Made by a program: the position numbers and the translations under genes. This document shows positions 11,713 to 57,819 of a DNA stretch of 64,000 nucleotides, one piece after another (position 1 is the first letter of the stretch; every line of letters begins with the position of its first letter). Source of the DNA: Naegleria gruberi. Taxonomy: Eukaryota. The notes below the pieces were generated by a model. That model had not been told where the DNA came from, made no database searches, and worked only from the letters and a program-made list of their open reading frames with translations. The stretch lies in the NCBI GenBank assembly GCA_000004985.1, contig GG738876.1; one strand, given 5' to 3'.

Positions 11713-12213
11713 ATGCCAAAACCTGCACCGAGCAGAACTAAATTAACAACATCAATCGTATCCCATCCCTATGCAAAAAAGAAGGAAGAAATTAATCAAA
11801 TCAATTCAAAAATTCAAAAACTCACCACTTTTCAGAAAAGAGTGTATGTTGCATTAACTAGAATTCCTTCGGGTCGGGTTACAACTTATGCCGGGTTGGC
11901 CAATTACTTGGATTGTAAATCGTCACAAGCAGTTGGTCAGGCATTGAAGAGAAATCCATTTGCTCCTGAAATTCCTTGTCATCGTGTTATAAAATCCAAT
12001 ACGTTTCATATTGGAGGATTTATGGGGAAAACCGAGGGAGATGAAATTGTAAAAAAGACAAGGTTATTGAAAGAGGAAGGAGTTGAATTTGATTCTAGTG
12101 GTGTGTTGATTGATAGAAAATTGATTCATTCCTTTGCAGATGATTCTGAATTGGAGAAGGATGACAAGGAGCTTGATTCACTTCTTTGTGATTTGTTAAA
12201 TTTCAAAAAATAA
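11713..12213 (+). CDS. O6-methylguanine-DNA methyltransferase (MGMT/Ogt family)
   Basis: Conserved suicide-acceptor motif IPCHRVI plus the upstream helix-turn-helix region VYVALTRIPSGRVTTYAGLA. Confidence 0.85.
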   Translation: MPKPAPSRTKLTTSIVSHPYAKKKEEINQINSKIQKLTTFQKRVYVALTRIPSGRVTTYAGLANYLDCKSSQAVGQALKRNPFAPEIPCHRVIKSNTFHIGGFMGKTEGDEIVKKTRLLKEEGVEFDSSGVLIDRKLIHSFADDSELEKDDKELDSLLCDLLNFKK

Positions 12214-12250: not shown

Positions 12251-13326
12251 TTATTTCATTTCCATCTTTTCTTCATACTTTTTATATTCTATAATTTCGT
12301 AGAGCTCGCTTCTAGTTTGCATTGTAGAAAGTACAGGTTCAACAGTTCCATTCTTGGAAATTGATTCGTACACATTCTTTGCAGCTTTAGCCATAGCTCT
12401 AAATGCACTCAATGGGTGGAGAACCATTGAAACACCAACACTAGCCAATTCTTCTCCAGTAAACAGAGGTGTTTTACCTAAAATTTAGATATTGAAATAT
12501 TGAAATTCAAATCTTTGAAATATTCGAAATAATACTTACCAAATTCTGTAATATTGGCCAAAATTGGAACATTTACTTGCTCTACAAAGGCTTTATACTC
12601 TTCCAGAGTTGTGCATGCTTCAGGGAACAACATATCTGCACCAGCATTCACATACTGTTTTGCTCTTTCAATTGCCTTTTCCAATCCTTCAACTGCCAAC
12701 GCATCAGTTCTAGCAATAATGACAAAATCCGAATCCACCCTAGCTTCACAAGCTGCCTTAATTTTCTCCACCATTTCCTCCGTACTAACTATTTGCTTAT
12801 TAGGTAAATGTCCACAACGTTTCACACTTTGAATTTGATCCTCAATATGAATAGCTGCTACTCCAACTCGTTCCATCTCTCTTACACACCTCATCACATT
12901 CAAAACTCCTCCAAATCCTTTTTCAAAATTAATATTTATTTCCATTCAATATAAATATAATATTAAATATAATATAATAAATATAATAATTAAAATATCA
13001 ATTCCATAAAAACACATACCAGTATCCACATCCACAAGTAATGGCAAATTAGTACATGATGTAATTCTCCTTGCATCCTCCAAAACATCACTCAAATTAG
13101 TCATTCCCATGTCTGGTAATCCAAAACTAGCTGTGGCCACACCACTTCCACTCAAATAAATTGCCTGATGACCACATTCTTCTGCTAACAAGGCTGTAAA
13201 TGCATTGATGGTTCCGACAATGTGGAGTGGTTGTTTATTGTTTTGGTTTTGGTTTTGGAGGGAAAGTTTGAATTTCTTCCCTGGAGAGAGTTTGGTAGAG
13301 GGTGATTGGCAAATTGTGTTGAGCAT
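12251..13326 (-). CDS. 2-methylisocitrate lyase, bacterial PrpB type (ICL/PEP-mutase superfamily); 3 exons
   Basis: Exons 13326..13020, 12917..12540, 12477..12251 (minus). Introns 13019..12918 (102 nt, GTATGT...AAAAAG) and 12539..12478 (62 nt, GTAAGT...TTTTAG). The spliced protein aligns end to end with PrpB: IVGTINAF...[10 protein letters not shown]...LLVDVDTG|FGG...EDQ...KRCGH...IARTDA...ANITEFGK|TPLFT...MQTR.ELY. Confidence 0.85.
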
Positions 13327-13854: not shown

Positions 13855-15183
13855 ATGAATCATCTTAAACGATTGATTGTTTTGGCTCTTGTAGTTGTAC
13901 TCATGTTTGTCGTCTCACTTTCACATGCTCAAGACGAACAACAGGAAAACAACAATAAGAGACCACCAAGACCTTTACCTTCAGGTAGACCACCAAGACC
14001 ACATCCAGATCATTCTGGAGGGCGACCACCTCGCCCATTCCCATCTGGAGGAAGACCACCACGTCCAGATCATTCAGGAAGAAGACCAAGACCAGATCAT
14101 TCTGGTGAGAGACCACATCCACCAGGTCCACAACCAGATCATTCAGGAAGAAGACCACCAAGACCTGGTCCACATCCTGGTCAATCAGGATTACCACCAC
14201 GTTCTGATGAACAAGATGGTCAAAGTGAAAATAGACCTCGTCCACCAAGACCTCATCCAGAACGTTCAGGTGAAAGACCACATCCAAGACCTTTCCCATC
14301 TGGAGGTAGACCACCAAGACCAGACCACTCAGGAAGAAGACCAGGTCCACATCCAGATCATTCTGGAAGACCACCTCGTCCACATCCAAGACCAGAACCA
14401 TCTTCTGAAGATGACGAACACTCTGATAGACTTGAACAAGGAAACAGACCTCGTCCACCAAGACCAGATCGTTCAGGTTTGCCACCTCGTCCATTCCCAT
14501 CTGGAGGAAGACCACCAAGACCAGATCATTCAGGAAGAAGACCACATCCAAGACCTGAACACTCTGGTGAGAGACCACATCCAAGACCAGCTCACTCTGG
14601 TGAAAGACCACCAAGACCAGATCATTCAGGAAGAAGACCAAGACCAGGTCCACAACCAGACCAATCGGGAAGACCACCTCGTCCTTATCCAGAACATTCT
14701 GGTGAAAGACCAGGCCCACGTCCTCAACCACAAGAATCAACTTCATCCTTAATAGGTGAAAGACCACCAAGACCTGATAGATCTGGAAGACCACCTCGTC
14801 CATTCCCATCTGGAGGCAGACCACCAAGACCAGGCCCATCTGGAGGAAGACCAGGTCCTGGACCAGGTCCACAACCTGATGTTTCATCTGTTGAAGATCC
14901 ACTCATTGATGCTCAAAATAATACCAAGAATGAAATTCCAAATGGACCATCCAATGGTTCTGATGCTTTGGCCATTGTCTTTGGTGTTATTGGTGCAATT
15001 GTTGTCATGGCTGCTATTGCTCTTGTCATTGGAAGTGGAATTGCTGTTTTTGTTTTGAAGAAGAAGGGTTATTCACTCTCATTGAAGAAACATCAAATGT
15101 TGAGAGATGAAGACGAATTTGAATATCCACAACAAGACCAAACTCCAATTTACTCTGTCAATCAACCAGTTGCTCAAAATTAG
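13855..15183 (+). CDS. Pro/Arg/His-rich tandem-repeat type I membrane protein (extensin/mucin-like)
   Basis: Signal peptide MNHLKRLIVLALVVVLMFVVSLSHA; about 25 degenerate units of RPPRPDHSG(R/E)RP; C-terminal TM IVFGVIGAIVVMAAIALVIGSGIAVFVL and cytoplasmic tail. Antisense ORF 13901..14902 is a repeat artefact. Confidence 0.75.
   Translation: MNHLKRLIVLALVVVLMFVVSLSHAQDEQQENNNKRPPRPLPSGRPPRPHPDHSGGRPPRPFPSGGRPPRPDHSGRRPRPDHSGERPHPPGPQPDHSGRRPPRPGPHPGQSGLPPRSDEQDGQSENRPRPPRPHPERSGERPHPRPFPSGGRPPRPDHSGRRPGPHPDHSGRPPRPHPRPEPSSEDDEHSDRLEQGNRPRPPRPDRSGLPPRPFPSGGRPPRPDHSGRRPHPRPEHSGERPHPRPAHSGERPPRPDHSGRRPRPGPQPDQSGRPPRPYPEHSGERPGPRPQPQESTSSLIGERPPRPDRSGRPPRPFPSGGRPPRPGPSGGRPGPGPGPQPDVSSVEDPLIDAQNNTKNEIPNGPSNGSDALAIVFGVIGAIVVMAAIALVIGSGIAVFVLKKKGYSLSLKKHQMLRDEDEFEYPQQDQTPIYSVNQPVAQN
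13960..14880 (+). repeat. Coding tandem repeat array (27-36 nt units encoding RPPRPDHSGRRP)
   Basis: Recurring agaccaccaagaccagatcattcaggaagaagacca-like units are visible directly in the sequence. Confidence 0.8.
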
Positions 15184-15579
15184 GTTCAATTTAAGTTTTT
15201 CAAAGATTATCGAGCGATAATAACACATTAATTTGCACTACTCTAAAGTGTGCATTCTCTCCTTGTGAGTACAAATTTACAAAATAAATACATTATTTCA
15301 TTGGTAAATTGATTGGTCTGAAAACTTAATTGTAATCTTTCCTTTATTAAAATCTCAAAGTAAAATTCCAACATCATCAATTTAAAAAATTGTCGTTAGA
15401 GCTCCTTCTCTTTGTTCATCATCATCAGTAATAATAATACTTGTGCGTTGAGAAGAATTGTTCTTTTGGTGGATCATCACAATTTGACTTGAGGAATTTA
15501 AATTATCTTTCACAAACAATTCAACGTTTTGATTAAACCTATTGCTTTTTTGTATATTTGTGGAACATTAGGTATTAGG

Positions 15580-17409
15580 ATGAAGAATAGTTATTCCACA
15601 TCAACGAGTGGTGGAATTTTATATAGTTCCGAATTTATTCAAGTTAATTTAGCTGCTGATGCAAAGGGTGATGAAGAAAATGGTTTTCAACCCAAGGCTG
15701 CATGTGTCTCTTGTAGAAAGCTACATCGTCGATGCTCAAAGGAATTTCCGAAATGCTCTGAATGTGTTACTCATCACAGAAAGTGTATTTACATGGATAC
15801 AAAAACAAAAGAAAGAAATCTAGCCTCATCATCATCAACAGATCGCACTACTAGTAGAGATAGTAGGGGTAATAACCAGAATAATAATAACAGCAAACGA
15901 TCAATGAGGAGAGCAGCGTCTACAATTGAAGAACCTCAAATTGCAATCACAGAGGGACTAATTAAGAAAAGTATCAAGAGACAAACGTTCAATGTCTATA
16001 TGGACTTGGTTTGTATGGGACTACCATTCATTACCCCTCAAAATTTTGAAAACATGCTCTTTTCTGAGAATATTCTGAATCAAAACACTAATGCAACCAG
16101 TATTAAGGCATTATTTCTATCAATACAGTCATTGTGTGATCAACGGTTTGGAAGAAGGGATGCTGCTATTGCTGCCTTCAATGAAGCAAAAAGTGAGCTA
16201 CATCAAGTTTTTGAAGATTACGATAACTATCTAAATATTTGTACATATAATAATTTAGCTTACTTTTCTGGTGCTGAGGGAGAGGATCAAATGTCACAAT
16301 GGTTCATGTCACCAGTAGAGTATTACCTATCAAAATATTCTGAATTGAATTTTAATTCCCATAACGAGCTGATAGGACTTGCCTTTGAAAATTTGAACAA
16401 AGGGAGTGGAATAACTAAATTATTTTATTTTGATAATAGATACAAATGGACAAGTCTCACTTTTGGAGATTATATAGGAATACCTTTCAAGTTATCTACT
16501 GGGAAAAGATTACCTCCTGAATTGAAGCAATTGGTGGATCGTGATTTGAATGAAAACACAGCACAAGCTGAGTCAGCAGTTCTTCAATGCATTCTTCAAT
16601 TTATGAAACAACACCATCAAAAGCTTGTGCATTCACCTGGTTTTCTCAACTTGTCTCGCATAGTGGATGTATCTAGTTTTACCAAAACAAGAATAGAATC
16701 ACTCCGAGTACTCTATTCAAAAGCAAATAGCCAAGAAAAGAGAGAGTTATTTTTCAAAGAAATGCTCAATCTTGCAAATACGACTACTGAACTAAGCAAG
16801 GATGATCTATTCCCATACATTTTACCTACCAATATTTTTGGTTTTGCTCTAGCTGCAGAAATTCATTTGGAAGCATTGTCTAATTTTTCTCATTTAGTAT
16901 CTGTTAGCGAAATTTTAGGGCATCTCAAACAAGATTTCCTAGCCCTTACTGTCCTTGCAAGGAAATATGGAAGAGTGCAGAAAGTTTATGGGTACATCTA
17001 TGATGAAATTCAGTCGGTATTGTTAAATAATGGAGTTCCTGCTGAAGAGTTATTGAACCTCATTTCTAATAATTCATTCAAAACACCATCTACCCCTAAA
17101 TTATATCCCCCTATTACTGTAAATAATCAAACCCATACAATTTCTCCCACCAACAACTCAACAGATCAAGTTATAACTTCTGAAAACTCTTCGCCCACTT
17201 CTGAAAATGTATCAAAGAAGAAGGATTTTCCATCGGCAGCTTTTCTTAATAATACGCTTCGTAATTTCAAGAAAACAATTTCCAACCAAGAAATTTGCAC
17301 GATAACTCCTCGAAGTTCTACAACATCAGATAGCCCAATTAATGAGGAAGAAATATCCTGCTTGAAAAATCAAACACTCTCAATACTGCAACAAACATTT
17401 TCAAAATAA
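15580..17409 (+). CDS. Zn(2)Cys6 (Gal4-type) transcription factor
   Basis: CVSCRKLHRRCSKEFPKCSECVTHHRKC gives the CX2CX6CX7CX2CX6C spacing. First in-frame ATG is at 15580; the track start at 15529 is non-ATG. Confidence 0.75.
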   Translation: MKNSYSTSTSGGILYSSEFIQVNLAADAKGDEENGFQPKAACVSCRKLHRRCSKEFPKCSECVTHHRKCIYMDTKTKERNLASSSSTDRTTSRDSRGNNQNNNNSKRSMRRAASTIEEPQIAITEGLIKKSIKRQTFNVYMDLVCMGLPFITPQNFENMLFSENILNQNTNATSIKALFLSIQSLCDQRFGRRDAAIAAFNEAKSELHQVFEDYDNYLNICTYNNLAYFSGAEGEDQMSQWFMSPVEYYLSKYSELNFNSHNELIGLAFENLNKGSGITKLFYFDNRYKWTSLTFGDYIGIPFKLSTGKRLPPELKQLVDRDLNENTAQAESAVLQCILQFMKQHHQKLVHSPGFLNLSRIVDVSSFTKTRIESLRVLYSKANSQEKRELFFKEMLNLANTTTELSKDDLFPYILPTNIFGFALAAEIHLEALSNFSHLVSVSEILGHLKQDFLALTVLARKYGRVQKVYGYIYDEIQSVLLNNGVPAEELLNLISNNSFKTPSTPKLYPPITVNNQTHTISPTNNSTDQVITSENSSPTSENVSKKKDFPSAAFLNNTLRNFKKTISNQEICTITPRSSTTSDSPINEEEISCLKNQTLSILQQTFSK

Positions 17410-18062: not shown

Positions 18063-20207
18063 ATGCCTGCAACACACTCAAAAGTAGAATTGCCAACCAA
18101 GAGTGATTATTGGCTTGAACAAATGATTCTTGATATGATTCATTCGTTTGATGGACTCACCGCTAGGAAAGTACTCACAAGTAAATATACATACATTGCA
18201 ATTGCACTTGCTGTTGCTGTCAAGTTTGGTTCATCCTACTTGTTAAAAAAGAAGAAGAAGAATTTACCAGCACACAACAAACCACGTTCCTCAAATACAT
18301 CAAAAGATTCCACTTTGAAAAAGTTCTGGAGTTTGGTTAAAATTGGTCTTTTTAATCCAAATGGAGCAGGAAATTCTAGTGCAATGAAATATAAAACAGA
18401 TCCTGCCAATGGAAGAGAAATATGGATTATGGTTGGCCTTGCTTCCCTTGTTATCTTCCAAACATATATTGTTAATAGAAACAACAGTGTCAGTGGTGAC
18501 TTGATGGCTAGTTTAGTTGCCAGAGATTCTGCAACTTGTATTTATAGATTACTCCAAATTACAGGTATTTTAATCTTACAATCTCTGGTCAATCCATCCG
18601 TTACATCACTTATTGAAACACTTGCTTTGAGAATGAGAAAGAATTTGACTATGGATATTCATGATCGTTATTATACAGATATGGTTTACTATAAGATTTT
18701 GAATTTGGATAAGAGAGTTGGTGCTCCAGATCAAAGAATTACTCAAGATGTTGAAGTTTTCTGCAAACAATTCTCTGAATTATTTATGGATCTCTTGAAT
18801 CCAATTGTAGAAGTTTTATTGTATACTTACGAGCTTACTAGATTGATTGGTTCTGGTGGTCCACTCAGTATTATTTCATATGTCGTCATTGCCTTTGGTG
18901 TTTTGGGTATGGTCACACCAAACTTTACAAAGATGTCATCTGAAGTTCAAAATAAGGAAGGTAAATTCAGATCCATTCACAATAGATGTAAGAATAATGC
19001 CGAACTTGTTGCCTTCTATGCTGGTGAAGAAACTGAACGTTTGAAGATTGAAAAACAATTCGAAGAATTGACATCATACAGTGACTATGTCATTAACAAG
19101 AATTTCTTATTCGGTGTTGTTAATGATTACTTTACCAAATATTCTCCTCATGCTGTTACCTCAGTCATTGTTGGTATTCCAGTCTTCTTTGGTAGATTAC
19201 GTCCATTGCCAAAGGACAAACTTATGGGTCAATTGAGATATTTAATCTCTGTTGTTGCATTTGAATTCTTTGCTTTGGGTAAAATCATTGAACTTTTCAG
19301 AAAGATTTTGAAATTGTCAGGTATGACACAACGTGTCCACTTGTTGTATCAAGTCATGGATGAACTCAAGCATGGTAACTCTGATAATGTTAACTTTAAG
19401 TTAAAGTCTGCCAAGGCTGGTGGTTCAGGAGGTGAAATTCTTGAAAGTGATGAAATCAAATTTGACAATGTCATTATCAGAACACCAGATAATATTACAT
19501 TGGCTCGTAATTTATCTTTCAATGTTGGTAAGAATCAACACATTGTTATTACTGGTCCAAATGGAGCTGGTAAATCATCATTGTTTAGAATTTTGGGTTC
19601 TTTGTGGCCTCTTCACAGTGGTATTGTCTACAAACCACAAGCTAAGGGTTCAAATGCTCAAGGTTTGCACAAGGAAATCTTCTACTTACCTCAAAAGCCA
19701 TACAATGTTATTGGATCTCTTCGTAGTCAAATTATCTATCCTGATACGCAATTGAAGGATGGATGGAAAGATTCTAATTTGAAGGAACTTTTGGATGACT
19801 TTAGTATTGGTTATTTGGCAGGACGTCACTCAGATGGATTTGATGGTAAACAAGATTGGGACACCTTGTCAAGAGGTGAACAACAAAAATTGGCCATGGT
19901 TCGTCTTTTCTACCACAAGCCAAAGTATGCCATTTTGGACGAATGTACCTCATGTATTTCTGCCGACTCTGAACAAGAATTATACGGAAGATGTGCCAAG
20001 AATGGTATTACTTGTATCACTATTTCACACAGACCAGCCCTCGAAAAGTATCACACTCAAAGACTTGTTTTCAATGGTATGGGTGGTTGGAAATGGGAAG
20101 CCATTAAGGAATGGACTGAAGAAAGTTCTAGTTATGAAGTTAAGGGTGAAGATAATACATTCCGTGACGATAAGGAAGAGGAAGCTGTTGAAGCAACCAA
20201 AGAATAA
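18063..20207 (+). CDS. ABC transporter, subfamily D (peroxisomal-type half transporter)
   Basis: N-terminal TMD then NBD with Walker A GPNGAGKSS, ABC signature LSRGEQQKLAMVRLFYHKPKYAILDEC and ABCD-specific C-terminal region. Confidence 0.85.
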   Translation: MPATHSKVELPTKSDYWLEQMILDMIHSFDGLTARKVLTSKYTYIAIALAVAVKFGSSYLLKKKKKNLPAHNKPRSSNTSKDSTLKKFWSLVKIGLFNPNGAGNSSAMKYKTDPANGREIWIMVGLASLVIFQTYIVNRNNSVSGDLMASLVARDSATCIYRLLQITGILILQSLVNPSVTSLIETLALRMRKNLTMDIHDRYYTDMVYYKILNLDKRVGAPDQRITQDVEVFCKQFSELFMDLLNPIVEVLLYTYELTRLIGSGGPLSIISYVVIAFGVLGMVTPNFTKMSSEVQNKEGKFRSIHNRCKNNAELVAFYAGEETERLKIEKQFEELTSYSDYVINKNFLFGVVNDYFTKYSPHAVTSVIVGIPVFFGRLRPLPKDKLMGQLRYLISVVAFEFFALGKIIELFRKILKLSGMTQRVHLLYQVMDELKHGNSDNVNFKLKSAKAGGSGGEILESDEIKFDNVIIRTPDNITLARNLSFNVGKNQHIVITGPNGAGKSSLFRILGSLWPLHSGIVYKPQAKGSNAQGLHKEIFYLPQKPYNVIGSLRSQIIYPDTQLKDGWKDSNLKELLDDFSIGYLAGRHSDGFDGKQDWDTLSRGEQQKLAMVRLFYHKPKYAILDECTSCISADSEQELYGRCAKNGITCITISHRPALEKYHTQRLVFNGMGGWKWEAIKEWTEESSSYEVKGEDNTFRDDKEEEAVEATKE

Positions 20208-28520: not shown

Positions 28521-29047
28521 TGTGATTGGTAAAGGATTGAATATTCTTGATCTCTGTTTCAATTTTCGTTCAAACTTGCACCTCATCTCCCATTTTCCTT
28601 GAAATTCAATTGTTCGGAGATGAGTGGGAGTTATTAATTGAAAATTCCGCAGTAGTAAGCACAATCTGTTCACAAGTCCATTACTTCTCCTCATGAAATC
28701 ATCAATTAATATTGAAAATTATTTGGATGTAGATATTGCAATTTCCTTCGTGTTCTCCATCTTTATTTCTCTGTGCATTATCAAAAACTACACACAGGTG
28801 CGCCCAATGATTGATCAATATTGAACCTTTTTTCATTCCTCCCACACGTGTGTGCTCCCTATCAATCATTAAGAGCATCAACATGATCCATTCAACAAAT
28901 GCAAGAGAGGCTCTCTTGAAAATTTTGGCGCGCAACTAAAATCTATGTGATTGTGTATTTGAGACTGATGGGAAGATGCTTTGAAAAAATATCTTTTTAA
29001 AATAATTTTAAATAAATTATTGTTGAAGAAAATTGATTCTAGAAAAA

Positions 29048-32017
29048 ATGTCTTCGTACGGAACGCACGGCGATGGTGGAGATGGGTTGGAATCGAGTAA
29101 ACAACTCAATGTGCTCCAAAAGATTGCTAGAAATAGAGTGGTGAATATTGTTGGTGCGATAATATTATCAATTATTTTATTATTGAGTATTGGATGTTGT
29201 GTTGTTGTTGGTGTGCTTCATTCACATTTGCTTTTCCAATGTGGATTTGCTGAATTTATATTTATGTTACTTCTTGAAGGCGCTACATTCTTCTTCTGTA
29301 TTTATCACTTGTACAATATTTACAAGTTTTTCAAGACTAGAGCACGACACTCTGGTAAGAAGGGAATTTCCGCTATTGTTGCTGCTTTATGTTCATCAGA
29401 AGTAAATCAATACAATGCATATTCTGATTCCAGACAAGGAAATGAAGAAGATGATTTTGATGATGAAGAAGATGATGAAGATGACGAAGAAGAGGAGGAA
29501 GAAGAAAGCAAATTTTCCAAGTTTGTTGTCGGCTTTTTGAAGATTGCTGCCAATGCTATTGCTGTTTTATGTTTCATCATTTTGGTACTTTTCACAGTTG
29601 TTGTCGTTCCATTGCAACAACAAACCTACCCAACTTATAACGGTACTCTTAAACTTCCAAAGTTTACACCAAAGGGATCTTCTGCTCCTACAATTTCACG
29701 TGAAAGTAATGGTGTTGTTCACATCAAGGCTTCACACGATTATGATTTATATTTCGCACAAGGTGTAGCTGTTGCTCAAGATCGTTTGTGGCAATTGGAA
29801 TTTAATCGTAGATTGTCAAATGGTATTTTGGCTGAAGTTGCTGGTGCTGATGCTGTCAATGTTGACAGTTGGTTCAGAACTCTCGGATTTGCTCGTTCTG
29901 CTGCCAACATTTTACCAACCATTGATGCTGAAACTCTTTCATTCATTCAAGCATATTGTGATGGTATTAACTCTTATATTAATAGTAATCCACCACTTCA
30001 ACCTGAATTTGTTCTCCTCAACACTAAACCAGTTGAATGGACTCCAAGTGATGTTATTGCTTATATGAAGTTTGTTTCATTCTCTCTTTCTGATAATATG
30101 GAAAAGGAAGTTTGGAGATTCAAGATGATGCAAAGAAATATCACAAAGGACAGAGTTAACGAATTGGTTCCTTTCTACCCAACTGATATGCCAACTATTT
30201 TGAGTTTGGAAGAAATGAATTTGCAAAACGTTCCAGTTGAAGAAAGAGAAAAGATTGAAAAGGCTCAACAAGATGATTCTGCTGCTTTTATTCCAAAGGC
30301 TATTCACAATTTGACCATGTCTGTCATGGAAGAAATGTTCGCTTCATTGGAAGAATCTGGTGAATGGGGTAAACAAGCTGTCAGATCAGTTTTGAAGGGT
30401 ATGGTTGCTCCAGATATCACTGGTAACAAGGCCTCAAACAATTGGGTTCTCGGAACCAAGATTACAGCAAACAATGGATCATTGTTGGCTAACGATCCTC
30501 ATTTGGATTTGACTGCTCCAGGTATTTGGTATTTGGCTCATTTGGAAGGTCCAACTCACAATGTTATTGGTTCTACTTTTGTTGGTCTTCCAGGTATTGT
30601 TATTGGTAAGAATGATTTCATTTCATGGGGTGTTACTACTGGTCTTGTTGATGCTCAAGATTTGTACGTCATGTCCGAAGTTGAAGAAGGTAAAACTTAC
30701 AACTACAATGGTAAAGTTCTCCAATATGAAACTCGTACCGAAACTATTAATGTTAAGGGAGCTGCTGCCAAGACTATTACTGTTAAGGAATCTGTCTACG
30801 GTCCAGTTATTAATGACCACTACCAAGTTGATGGTAACGTTTTGTGTTTGAAGTCTTTGACTACCTACACTAATGATACCACACTCCAAGCTTTCCTCAA
30901 GTTGAACAGAGAAGCTAAGGATTGGAACTCATTTGTTGATGTTGTCTCCTTGTTCGTTTCCCCATCCCAAAACTTTGTCTTTGCTGACAAGAGTGGTAAC
31001 ATTGGTTACTATTTGGCTGGTTTGGTTCCAATTAGAAAGGAAGGTCACAATGGTAGATTCCCAGTTATTGGTGATGGTAGCTATGATTGGCAAGGATTTA
31101 TTCCAGCTGCTGAAAAGCCAAGCGTTTACAATCCAAAGAAGGATTACATTGCTTCTGCAAACAACAGAGTTACTCCTGTTGGTTACAAGTACAGTATTAC
31201 CCAAGATTGGTACTCTTTCTATAGAGCTAGCAGAATTGTCTCATTGATTGAAACTGCTATTGAAAAGGGAACTCCACTCAATTTTGAATACATGAAGAAG
31301 ATGCAACACGACGTTCACTCACCAGTCTTTGATCAATTCAAGTTTGTTTTTGAAGCTATTCCAAAGTTCAGAAATCTCACTGAAAATAAGGAAAAGTTGA
31401 GAGAAAAGTTGATTAATTGGGACGGTGATGAAATTTTGTACTCTCAATCTGCTTCCATCTTTGAAATGTGGTACAAGATTATGGGTAACCTCACCAAGGT
31501 TGAAACTGTCAATAGATGGTCTTTCGGTCCATATCTTTACAATGCCTTGAAGAATGGTGATAGTGCTTGTGAAAATTATCACAACACTACTTGTATGTTG
31601 TTCGCTATTGACAGCTTTGAAAATGCCATTGATGCTCTTGAAGCCACTTACGGTTCTATTCCATTGTGGGGTTCTGATATTCACGAATCTGAATTCCCTA
31701 ACCCGGTAATGGATAATACTGTTCTCAAATGTTTGGCTGGAGCTACTCGTACTACTGTTGGTGGTTCTTCAACCATTAATGTTGGTGAAACTCAATATCC
31801 TGCCCTCAATTCAAGATGGGGTGTTTCTTATAGACAAGTTGTTGATTGGCGAGGCAATCAAGCTTCATTCATCATTCCACTCGGTCAATCTGGTAACTTC
31901 TTATCTCCTCTTTACACCAACTTGTTAGAAATGTGGTCTGACCCAACTGGTCAATACTTGGACATGAAATCTGCTGGTTACACTGCAACCAATACCCTTT
32001 CTCTTTCCTCTCAATAA
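29048..32017 (+). CDS. Membrane-anchored penicillin-amidase-family Ntn hydrolase (peptidase S45; AHL-acylase/aculeacin-acylase-like)
   Basis: N-terminal TM helices, poly-acidic linker EEDDFDDEEDDEDDEEEEEEE, further TM helix, then the full amidase domain. The beta-subunit N-terminal nucleophile context is GNKASNNWVLGTKITANNGSLLANDPHLDLTAPGIWYLAHL (compare E. coli PGA SNMWVIG...VNGPQFGW). ATG at 29048. Confidence 0.8.
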   Translation: MSSYGTHGDGGDGLESSKQLNVLQKIARNRVVNIVGAIILSIILLLSIGCCVVVGVLHSHLLFQCGFAEFIFMLLLEGATFFFCIYHLYNIYKFFKTRARHSGKKGISAIVAALCSSEVNQYNAYSDSRQGNEEDDFDDEEDDEDDEEEEEEESKFSKFVVGFLKIAANAIAVLCFIILVLFTVVVVPLQQQTYPTYNGTLKLPKFTPKGSSAPTISRESNGVVHIKASHDYDLYFAQGVAVAQDRLWQLEFNRRLSNGILAEVAGADAVNVDSWFRTLGFARSAANILPTIDAETLSFIQAYCDGINSYINSNPPLQPEFVLLNTKPVEWTPSDVIAYMKFVSFSLSDNMEKEVWRFKMMQRNITKDRVNELVPFYPTDMPTILSLEEMNLQNVPVEEREKIEKAQQDDSAAFIPKAIHNLTMSVMEEMFASLEESGEWGKQAVRSVLKGMVAPDITGNKASNNWVLGTKITANNGSLLANDPHLDLTAPGIWYLAHLEGPTHNVIGSTFVGLPGIVIGKNDFISWGVTTGLVDAQDLYVMSEVEEGKTYNYNGKVLQYETRTETINVKGAAAKTITVKESVYGPVINDHYQVDGNVLCLKSLTTYTNDTTLQAFLKLNREAKDWNSFVDVVSLFVSPSQNFVFADKSGNIGYYLAGLVPIRKEGHNGRFPVIGDGSYDWQGFIPAAEKPSVYNPKKDYIASANNRVTPVGYKYSITQDWYSFYRASRIVSLIETAIEKGTPLNFEYMKKMQHDVHSPVFDQFKFVFEAIPKFRNLTENKEKLREKLINWDGDEILYSQSASIFEMWYKIMGNLTKVETVNRWSFGPYLYNALKNGDSACENYHNTTCMLFAIDSFENAIDALEATYGSIPLWGSDIHESEFPNPVMDNTVLKCLAGATRTTVGGSSTINVGETQYPALNSRWGVSYRQVVDWRGNQASFIIPLGQSGNFLSPLYTNLLEMWSDPTGQYLDMKSAGYTATNTLSLSSQ

Positions 32018-47805: not shown

Positions 47806-50000
47806 CTAACGAGTATGTAAAAATCTGTGAGGATGATTTCTCTTGGTTTCTTCATAAACTTCCAAACAAAATCCAACATGCATTTGAAGGTGAAGATATC
47901 TTCTGTGTAAAAGTGGTGACCTCTCTGTCATTTGTTTGAGGTTTCTCAGGTCTTGATAGAGATATTGAGCGAGCTCTTCTACGTAATCATACAATAAATT
48001 AATGCTTGGATCATTTAGTAGATTGGATAACACATCATAGTGAATCTTGGCAGCAACTTCAACTGAGTAAATAACAGGGAGTTGGCAATACTTGAAAAAT
48101 GGTAATTGGGTTACCTTGGTAATTTCATTGGCGGCAGAGGTTATATCTGCCGAAGAAGATATTCTGTACTTGTGTTGTTTGAATAGAATCAAAGCTTTAA
48201 CTCCAAGACAAACAACAAGGAATGTGTAGGTACGATCAGAATTCATACTTGAAAATACCTTCACAATCATGTCCAATTTTGTCATTATTTGTTGAACTGG
48301 TTCTTCCAAGCTGAAAAGTTGTGGCCTTCCAGAGTGGGACATAATAGATGACCTAAGTTGGTTGAATGTAGGACTGCTCACAGCAGTATTGAGACACGCA
48401 ATGTGCTTCTCAACAACAAATTTAGAATACTCATCAAAATCTAAAATGTCACCAAATGTCAAATTGTTGACAATTTTCTTATTAATTGCATCAATCTCAC
48501 TTTCCACAACATCTGTTAGTGAGGATAATTAGAAAATTAATAACCAAAATTTAACAACATACCACTCAAATAGAATAATTCTGAAACACATAGACCTTGT
48601 CTAATAAAACTACAATGTTCATCCATGTCCTTTTCTCTTTCTTTCAAATACCATGTGCAAATAGAATAGAAATATTTGGATCTTGCCACACAATCCAAAT
48701 AACATTTAGAGTTGGCTGCTTTTGAACATGCTGTGGCTGAAGAACATTTGGATGGACTTTTGCATTCAGCACTCAATAGATAGTATGCCATCAACGTGTA
48801 CGTATAAATGACAGAACTGTCATTGGTTTGATCGAAACACTTGGAAATGTGATCTCTTCCCTTCTCGAAAAATATTTTAGCAAATCCCATATTACCAATC
48901 CTGAAGAATGAAATAGCATGCATTAAAAACAAGAATGCCAGCTTGGAGTTTCCTAGGGGCTCTCTAGGGTCAATCTTGTCTTCCAGCTCGCTCTCTAGGT
49001 CAGTTTTTCCTGTAATAGAAACACTGAGCCAATACATTAATTCATCTCTGTTGGATGGTGGGACCATAGAATAGGAAAGACTCTTATACACATCTAATGA
49101 AATATTGTCAAAATATTTTCTATCAAGCTCAATTTGTCGTAAGTTATTGAGATAGGCTCTTTCATTGATATACCTTGATTCTCTTTTCACTGGAATTGGA
49201 ACTGATGGAGGTGATTCCTTCCTTTTGGATATTGTTTTGCTCTTTCTCTCAGTAATTACAGATGAGTCATCAACAAATTGATACTCTACAACACCTGTCA
49301 ATGAATTATTCGAATTTAGTATGGTTTTTGGACCTCTTTTTCTTGCTTGAGCATAAACACATTGCTTTTGTGAACGTAGACAATTGGAGCAACCAGGATA
49401 AGCCACACGGTCACACTTTTTGTGATTCAACTTGCAAAAGATACAAGCATTATTCATCAATACAACATCTACATTTGTTGATTGAGCTGTTATTGAATCT
49501 ATATTTGAAGGACTTGTTTTATCACATGAATTAGAGGCTTTAGAAGATGCTGTAAATGTTGATGAACTCTCGGATGAGTTGTGTACAAGTAAACCTGTAT
49601 TCAGCATTGTGAATGGAGTATTTACCTGTGTAAGATTGAAGAAGTGATCAGTTGTATTGTTGGTAGTGTTTGTTGGTAATGTTGGAGTCTTCTTCTTCGT
49701 ACTTACAAAGGCTGGATTGAAATTGTTTTCCATTTGATTATTACTCCTCATCACATCACTTGATGAAGTGGCTGATGAGGTTGCATGATGATTAGATTGT
49801 TGCGCCATCATTTGTGTGATGTTATTGTTGGAGAACATGTTTTGTGAATTAAATAAGAGGTTTGAGCCAACATTAGGAAGAGTCACCCTTTCGCTCTGAC
49901 CAGTCCAGGAATTTGTCTGTTGGCATGTTGACGAAGAAGGCTGCTGATGCAAGTTCAAATTAAATTGCTGATGTTGTTGTTGATGATGTTGCATTATCAA
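47806..50000 (-). CDS. Zn(2)Cys6 transcription factor; 2 exons
   Basis: ACIFCKLNHKKCDRVAYPGCSNCLRSQKQC zinc cluster after a poly-Q N-terminus. A 50-nt intron (48562..48513; GTATGT...CACTAACAG) joins ORF 48537..50000 in frame to ORF 47806..48507 (...ELFYLS|DVVESEIDAINKK...). Confidence 0.7.
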
Positions 50001-51077: not shown

Positions 51078-51150
51078 CGCCCCACGTGGGGCTCGAACCC
51101 ACGACCGTTGGATTAAAAGTCCAACGCTCTACCGACTGAGCTAGCGGGGC
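51078..51150 (-). tRNA. tRNA-Lys (anticodon UUU), intronless
   Basis: Minus-strand read GCCCCGCTAGCTCAGTCGGTAGAGCGTTGGACTTTTAATCCAACGGTCGTGGGTTCGAGCCCCACGTGGGGCG. It has a 7-bp acceptor stem with one G-U pair, D-loop AGTCGGTAGA, anticodon loop CTTTTAA and T-loop GGTTCGAGCC. Confidence 0.9.
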
Positions 51151-57746: not shown

Positions 57747-57819
57747 TGGAGATGCGGGGTATCGATCCCCGTACCTCTTCCATGCTAAAGAAGCGCTCTA
57801 CCATGTGAGCTACATCCCC
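57747..57819 (-). tRNA. tRNA-Ala (anticodon AGC), intronless, with G3:U70 identity pair
   Basis: Minus-strand read GGGGATGTAGCTCACATGGTAGAGCGCTTCTTTAGCATGGAAGAGGTACGGGGATCGATACCCCGCATCTCCA. Acceptor GGGGATG/CATCTCC gives G3-T70; anticodon loop TTAGCAT. Confidence 0.9.

Follow-up and report, generated by a model that had tools for sequence, protein, structure and literature searches.

A stretch of 64,000 nucleotides of the Naegleria gruberi genome (assembly GCA_000004985.1, contig GG738876.1; hereafter the window) carries at 12251-13326, on the minus strand, a gene that probably encodes a functional Mg2+-dependent 2-methylisocitrate lyase of the bacterial PrpB type, acting in the methylcitrate cycle and belonging to a clade of PrpB proteins found in eukaryotic genomic contexts. 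The interval runs exactly from start codon through stop codon. The spliced protein is residue for residue the same as the public entry XP_002675800.1/EFC43056.1 (NAEGRDRAFT_69085, N. gruberi NEG-M), which NCBI lists as hypothetical and UniProt as 'Methylisocitrate lyase' (D2VJL8); gene, exact exon structure and name are already in GenBank and UniProt and are not new. The present analysis adds a shared intron, a eukaryote-context PrpB clade that includes Acrasis, host-like codon usage, a likely cytosolic location and an unusual catalytic loop. A search of the open literature on Naegleria brought up no discussion of the lyase gene or of a methylcitrate cycle. What the enzyme does, in which pathway and where in the cell, and which way the gene was transferred, we infer here from the sequence.

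Family membership and active site

The protein was compared with NCBIfam equivalog profiles, whose cut-offs for PrpB are 353 bits (PRK11320, NF008455) and 354.4 bits (TIGR02317, prpB). It scored 459.6 bits and 408.9 bits, respectively, with nearly the whole of each profile covered, and its NCBIfam E-value of 4e-138 is far outside what chance would give. Pfam returned PEP_mutase over residues 30-268 (E = 6.5e-49), together with a partial match to isocitrate lyase (ICL). In the PDB the top match was E. coli PrpB (1mum; E = 2e-105, residues 14-301 against 4-286), the pairwise alignment covering 282 positions, 62% of them identical, and crossing both exon junctions without a gap, and the PrpB structures of P. 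aeruginosa, Salmonella, Coxiella and Burkholderia gave comparable matches. From this identity to solved structures the barrel fold of the PEP-mutase/ICL superfamily is predicted. The best 120 homologues are all PrpB-like, and each one named by a source is a methylisocitrate lyase. These results support assignment of the protein as a PrpB-type 2-methylisocitrate lyase (EC 4.1.3.30): the features by which PrpB can be recognised in a sequence are all present, and the scores for the sister families, weighed below, fall short.

Fungal methylisocitrate lyases derived from ICL are proteins of about 540-600 amino acids. They stem from eukaryotic isocitrate lyases and are distant from bacterial PrpB (PMC3593168). 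The Naegleria protein is predicted to share reaction and pathway role with these enzymes (Mcl/McIA), but it is not of the ICL-derived kind: ICL profiles align only to residues ~94-196, where they reach 46-86 bits while their cut-offs are 276-562 (TIGR01346, 76.1 against 275.9; NF011645, 86.3 against 562). A sequence-only reading of this DNA had described the product as colinear with proteobacterial PrpB, KRCGH catalytic loop included, and as distinct from the large fungal type. Both descriptions are borne out, the former by the 62% identity and the passing of both equivalog cut-offs, and the latter by the length of 303 amino acids and the partial, low-scoring ICL matches.

Bacterial PrpB proteins of known structure (E. 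coli 1MUM/1OQF/1XG3, Salmonella 1O5Q, P. aeruginosa 6T4V, Coxiella 9HGK, Burkholderia 3EOO) are alike in length to the Naegleria protein (~290-305 amino acids) and have in common with it the KRCGH loop, the Mg2+ ligands and the substrate-binding residues. The Naegleria protein differs in a 9-residue N-terminal extension, a QNQNN insert, a shorter C-terminal tail, an inserted Val134, and the replacement of Arg by Leu140 and of Tyr by His249. At the level of the gene, the bacterial and amoebal forms differ in that the latter is nuclear, is split by two spliceosomal introns, uses codons as its host does, and is not part of a prpBCDE operon.

Among the active-, metal- and substrate-site positions checked, 21 of 22 are identical to those of E. 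coli PrpB, including Tyr57, Asp72, Asp99, Asp101, Glu128, K135-R136-C137-G138-H139, Arg172, Glu202 and Phe200/Leu248/Pro250. Thus E. coli Tyr43, Ser45, Gly46, Asp58, Asp85, Asp87, Glu115, Arg158, Glu188, Asn210, Thr212, Arg241 and Arg270 are all kept, a list of Mg2+ and substrate residues drawn up partly after Grimm 2003 and Liu 2005. Also kept, as Phe200, Leu248 and Pro250, are E. coli Phe186, Leu234 and Pro236, reported (Grimm et al. 2003) to form the C2-methyl pocket that separates PrpB from ICL. The sole change is at E. coli Gly47, which is Ser61 in Naegleria; serine at this site is found as well in the aligned eukaryote-context sequences, in the bacterial protein P0011 from a metagenome-assembled genome, and in the product of an uncultured relative's gene on the contig designated L012. 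Two further replacements, Tyr to His249 and Gln to Val274, are common to N. gruberi and L012 only among the 123 aligned sequences.

The mobile catalytic loop, Q130-K143, is encoded at 12796-12837 on the minus strand, with Val134 at 12825-12823, KRCGH at 12822-12808 and Leu140 immediately after. All 123 aligned sequences agree in the KRCGH columns. The roles given here to the loop and its cysteine in the lyase mechanism are taken from work on Coxiella PrpB (bioRxiv 10.1101/2025.01.06.631558), in which mutagenesis supported catalytic roles for Cys, two Asp, Tyr, His and Arg; Tyr40, Asp54, Asp81, Glu110, His120 and Arg152 were confirmed, and the C118S change abolished activity.

Gene structure, relatives and descent

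The ATG at 13326-13324 is the first available start, no upstream in-frame ATG being present before the nearest upstream stop codon. Exon 1 (13020-13326; all features on the minus strand) comprises codons 1-102 and the first base of Gly103, and its residues 14-103 align with residues 4-88 of E. coli PrpB. Intron 1 (12918-13019) is 102 nt long, has the ends GTATGT...AAG, lies in phase 1 and has 11% GC. Exon 2 (12540-12917) completes codon 103, ends one base into Gly229, and encodes the core of the barrel together with the catalytic loop. Intron 2 (12478-12539), of 62 nt, has the ends GTAAGT...TAG, again lies in phase 1 and has 18% GC; exon 3 (12251-12477) then completes codon 229 and continues to Lys303 and the TAA stop at 12253-12251. 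The spliced coding sequence of 912 nt is in frame, has 39% GC and specifies 303 amino acids.

Retention of intron 1 brings in an in-frame stop (open reading frame, ORF, 12946-13326), as does retention of intron 2 (ORF 12478-12945), and either intron, if retained, ends translation within ~25 codons. Once both are spliced out, the protein again aligns with E. coli PrpB without a gap through the junction motifs DVDTG/FGG and ITEFG/KTPLF (the slash marks the exon junction). With canonical ends, frame and motifs restored, and the site of the first shared with L012, both have the look of real spliceosomal GT-AG introns. Introns of 102 and 62 nt with GTATGT and GTAAGT donors had been proposed from the sequence alone, and they are confirmed at 13019-12918 and 12539-12478.

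Composition and surroundings tell of a gene at home in its genome. The window is AT-rich (~33% GC) and gene-dense, and four of its proteins, looked up by exact sequence, all proved to be those of N. gruberi NEG-M. GC at third codon positions (GC3) is 0.303 in the lyase gene, compared with 0.286 +/- 0.046 in 20 other ORFs of the window, and its relative synonymous codon usage correlates with that of the window ORFs at r = 0.86, whereas E. coli prpB, with 56% GC, gives r = -0.25. The gene sits on a 396,977-bp N. gruberi scaffold among eukaryotic genes, its neighbours encoding a Kelch protein, an MGMT-type protein, Zn2Cys6 factors, an ABCD half-transporter, Prp19, actin, an RGS protein and an F-box protein. 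By these signs it is a resident eukaryotic gene, well integrated in the amoeba genome. The earlier claim of long residence rather than contamination is supported by the two introns, the host codon usage, the eukaryotic neighbours and the intron site shared with L012.

The best full-length matches, at 58-67% identity, are from the heterolobosean Acrasis kona and a few metagenomic proteins, followed by hundreds of bacterial PrpBs. The relatives in eukaryotic context (Acrasis kona, the metagenomic proteins P0001-P0009, and L012) are 62-71% identical to the Naegleria lyase. The Acrasis gene lies among PPR, clathrin-adaptor and ThiF/rhodanese genes, while P0004 adjoins a GCN2-type kinase gene, P0003 adjoins Nas2 and OSCA-like channel genes, P0002 an enkurin gene and P0009 an LCAT gene. 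The eukaryote-context contigs have low GC (35-40%), and no prpC or prpD is adjacent to any PrpB gene inspected on them; the bacterial relative P0011 lies in a classical prpB-prpC-prpD operon of 56% GC. Naegleria and its eukaryote-context relatives have the signatures SGSGVATAS and EFGKTP in common, but none of the latter has the Val134 insertion.

A search with exon 2 only led to P0129, whose ENA metagenome contig, L012, bears an Nckap1 gene as well. The lyase gene on it (4260-5206 of L012; ENA ERZ27315067, contig k141_1923131) gave a reconstructed PrpB of 300 amino acids with 71% identity to the Naegleria protein. It is interrupted by a 44-nt intron, GTAAGT...CAG, at the same codon and in the same phase as Naegleria intron 1, and this, read from the sequence of another organism, is independent comparative support for intron 1. 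Intron 1 would therefore predate the split of N. gruberi from L012. Acrasis and four environmental members are intronless, intron 1 being present in L012 only; at the intron 2 site none was seen in L012, Acrasis or the other relatives inspected. The L012 gene adjoins Nckap1, DOMON and ferric-reductase genes and shows no synteny with the Naegleria locus.

In a first neighbour-joining tree, without L012, the eukaryote-context sequences formed a clade in 195 of 200 bootstraps. Addition of L012 broke the long branch: N. gruberi and L012 paired in 298 of 300 bootstraps, and in 239 of 300 this pair was the sister of the eukaryote-context clade or nested in it. One old acquisition shared with Acrasis is likely on this evidence. 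The Naegleria gene would be bacterial in origin and would since have come to use codons as its host does and acquired two introns, the first of them before N. gruberi split from its uncultured relative. It would offer a clean case of a bacterial-derived gene that has fully taken up the codon usage of its host and acquired introns, one of which is so old that a relative has it too.

The full-length Naegleria protein is not among its own best matches, its 90% cluster being represented by a 96-amino-acid fragment, and the exon 2 search returned no named Naegleria protein among its matches, where orthologues may hide behind fragment cluster representatives. A statement that the gene is absent from N. 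fowleri was considered and rejected, the query's own 90% cluster being represented by that Logan fragment, behind which orthologues can be hidden.

That a PrpB of bacterial type can work in a eukaryote is established in the case of Toxoplasma; for other alveolates it is inferred (PMC3593168). The Toxoplasma gondii enzyme, TgPrpB, is bacterial in type, attributed to horizontal transfer, and proven to be a methylisocitrate lyase by genetics and metabolomics; it is largely cytosolic, with no strong targeting signal, the pathway being divided between mitochondrion and cytosol (PMC3593168). Like TgPrpB, the Naegleria lyase is a PrpB of bacterial type rather than an ICL derivative. They differ in that identity to bacterial PrpB is at most ~50% for TgPrpB, which is described as having an 'exotic active site' (PMC3593168), and 58-67% for the Naegleria protein, whose site is canonical, and in that the function of TgPrpB is proven while that of the Naegleria lyase is predicted from sequence. 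No alveolate sequence is among the best 120 matches of the Naegleria lyase, and separate acquisition of the two is therefore likely.

Proposed role and competing readings

By homology the Naegleria lyase would be a homotetramer of the PEP-mutase/ICL superfamily, binding (2R,3S)-2-methylisocitrate on an Mg2+ ion held by Asp72, Asp99, Asp101 and Glu128. The loop of residues ~130-143 would close over the substrate, cleavage of the C2-C3 bond would yield pyruvate and a succinate carbanion, and Cys137 of the KRCGH loop would protonate the carbanion. In this way the enzyme probably catalyses the final reaction in the breakdown of propionate by the 2-methylcitrate cycle, the disposal to pyruvate and succinate of propionyl-CoA arising from odd-chain fatty acids and branched-chain amino acids. 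N. gruberi trophozoites live chiefly on fatty-acid oxidation (PMC6205838), which yields propionyl-CoA from odd-chain substrates. An N. gruberi proteome table lists a mitochondrial citrate synthase and an aconitase (PMC8134430 supplement).

The N-terminus is just ~9 residues longer than that of E. coli PrpB before it aligns with the folded protein, and the extension is absent in Acrasis, L012 and most other eukaryote-context relatives. Mitochondrial targeting is doubtful on these grounds, although a short presequence may be present. By eye the C-terminus, which ends ...EMK, holds no peroxisomal targeting signal of type 1 (PTS1), and no convincing type 2 signal (PTS2) was seen. The short extension, its lack in relatives and the absence of a PTS1 favour the cytosol as the most likely location.

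Several observations weigh against a functional methylcitrate-cycle lyase within the eukaryote-context clade. PrpC and PrpD were not found in the window (tblastn at E <= 1; Pfam scans). N. gruberi proteins fall in eukaryotic clades of cobalamin-associated protein phylogenies (PMC8085122); this hints at a B12-dependent route for propionyl-CoA, and the methylcitrate route might therefore be a parallel or a back-up, or the lyase might be used otherwise. Trophozoites did not oxidise labelled Ile or Val (PMC6205838), and no activity, transcript, proteomic or localisation data on the Naegleria lyase were found in the open literature searched. In the catalytic loop, Val134 is inserted just before KRCGH, lengthening the loop by one residue, and none of the 122 other aligned sequences has the insertion; Leu140 follows the KRCGH His at a site where 121 of 123 aligned sequences have Arg. 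L012, the closest relative among the matches listed, has neither change. The insertion and the R140L replacement could alter kinetics or specificity. As to the clade, the trees are bootstrapped neighbour-joining only, drawn from sequences picked by similarity to the query and containing no alveolate sequences, and because the method is simple and the sampling biased to the query a single acquisition is likely rather than proven. Without L012 the placement of N. gruberi was split, being sister to the eukaryote clade in 89 of 200 bootstraps and to the P0011/P0025/P0055 group, which includes a candidate division WOR-3 protein, in 60 of 200.

These points leave some room, though the prospect is rather unlikely, for an orphan or repurposed lyase: a PrpB by descent in an organism without a dedicated methylcitrate dehydratase, where the bulk of propionyl-CoA would pass through the B12-dependent methylmalonyl-CoA route. 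The enzyme might then detoxify methylisocitrate arising from side reactions of citrate synthase and aconitase, act on another 2-hydroxy acid, or serve as an oxaloacetate decarboxylase. Consistent with such a role are the lack of prpC and prpD near the gene within the 64-kb window and of an operon among the eukaryote-context relatives, where the bacterial relative keeps prpB-prpC-prpD, as well as the N. gruberi entries in the cobalamin-associated phylogenies (PMC8085122) and the two nearly unique changes in the catalytic loop. However, eukaryotic pathway genes are usually dispersed, so that absence of clustering says little. Moreover, the 19 catalytic and substrate positions checked and the three methyl-pocket residues are conserved (21 of the 22 identical), the equivalog scores stand ~55-105 bits over the cut-offs, and the gene is intact in several eukaryotes, implying selection.

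It is far less probable that the protein belongs elsewhere in the PEP-mutase/ICL superfamily, as an oxaloacetate acetylhydrolase, a 2-alkylmalate lyase like the petal death protein, a dimethylmalate lyase or a carboxy-PEP mutase. Fold, size and a loop of the K-x-C-G-H type are common to these families and PrpB, and the loop insertion and R140L are atypical of PrpB, but similarity to these proteins is much weaker. Carboxy-PEP mutase (TIGR02319) scored 223.7 bits against a cut-off of 420.05 and PEP mutase 137.4 against 319.55, and the phosphonopyruvate hydrolase model remained well under its cut-off. By E-value, petal death protein (2e-55), dimethylmalate lyase (1.3e-44) and oxaloacetate hydrolase (1.7e-39) fall 50-65 orders of magnitude short of PrpB in the PDB, and the PrpB-like character of all of the best 120 homologues likewise argues against a sister family. 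The sequence-only reading had kept an oxaloacetase or PEP-mutase-family variant as a fallback, which these scores do not support; kinship with carboxy-PEP-mutase-like proteins of different function, the result it named as telling against PrpB, was decided in PrpB's favour by profile and PDB scores.

An artefact, whether bacterial contamination or a decaying pseudogene with AT-rich insertions posing as introns, might be suspected from the very high identity to bacterial PrpB (58-67%), but is, as far as the sequence can tell, effectively refuted by the position of the gene among eukaryotic genes in a 397-kb scaffold, by its 39% GC and host-like codon usage (E. coli prpB has 56% GC and gives r = -0.25), by two interruptions that have consensus GT...AG ends and whose removal restores frame and conserved motifs exactly in an otherwise intact frame, and by the intron site shared with an independent eukaryotic contig.

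With the PrpB assignment preferred, a broader picture may be sketched, tentatively: one old PrpB lineage in Naegleria, Acrasis and several uncultured protists, taken up from bacteria independently of the alveolate one, would supply a cytosolic lyase step parallel to the B12 route, the altered loop (the added Val134 and R140L) tuning kinetics or specificity. This would be a second PrpB lineage, apparently apart from that of alveolates, in free-living amoeboid eukaryotes. If the picture is true, the methylcitrate route is a possible B12-independent safeguard for a lipid-oxidising organism. Such a way for a lipid-burning amoeba to dispose of propionyl-CoA would be a potential metabolic vulnerability if the related pathogen N. 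fowleri has it too. The impact is small, in that a bacterial-type PrpB in a eukaryote has already been characterised genetically in Toxoplasma.

Neighbouring genes

Convergent with the lyase gene, at 11713-12213 on the plus strand, lies a gene for a 166-amino-acid protein with a 6-O-methylguanine-DNA methyltransferase (MGMT) DNA-binding domain and an intact PCHRV motif. Its stop is 37 nt from that of the lyase gene, and the 3' ends of the two genes must therefore overlap or abut. On the other side, 13855-15183 (plus strand), transcribed away from the lyase gene with a ~530-bp spacer between the two, encodes a proline-rich protein of 442 amino acids with repeated PRPDHSG(R/E)RP-like units and a hydrophobic stretch near the C-terminus; it gave no Pfam match, and its composition is unusual (GC 0.47, with GC3 just 0.13).

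About 5 kb from the lyase gene, 18063-20207 (plus strand) encodes an ABCD-type half transporter with ABC_membrane_2 and ABC_tran domains (XP_002675719.1). The ABCD family includes peroxisomal acyl-CoA importers. Lyase and transporter are both tied to lipid catabolism, but their proximity is probably coincidental. Two proteins, encoded at 15529-17409 (plus strand) and 48537-50000 (minus strand), carry the Zn(2)-Cys(6) binuclear cluster, a DNA-binding domain known as 'fungal', although the genome is not that of a fungus.

An uninterrupted ORF of 994 amino acids at 29033-32017 (plus strand), where local GC reaches 0.39, matches Pfam Penicil_amidase (PF01804; 8.7e-180, 600 bits). By this match it is a penicillin/acyl-homoserine-lactone acylase (Ntn hydrolase) of bacterial type, and it is possibly a second bacterial-derived gene in the window. 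The sole matches to Rfam and by ARAGORN in the window are tRNA-Lys(TTT) at 51078-51150 and tRNA-Ala(AGC) at 57747-57819, both on the minus strand.

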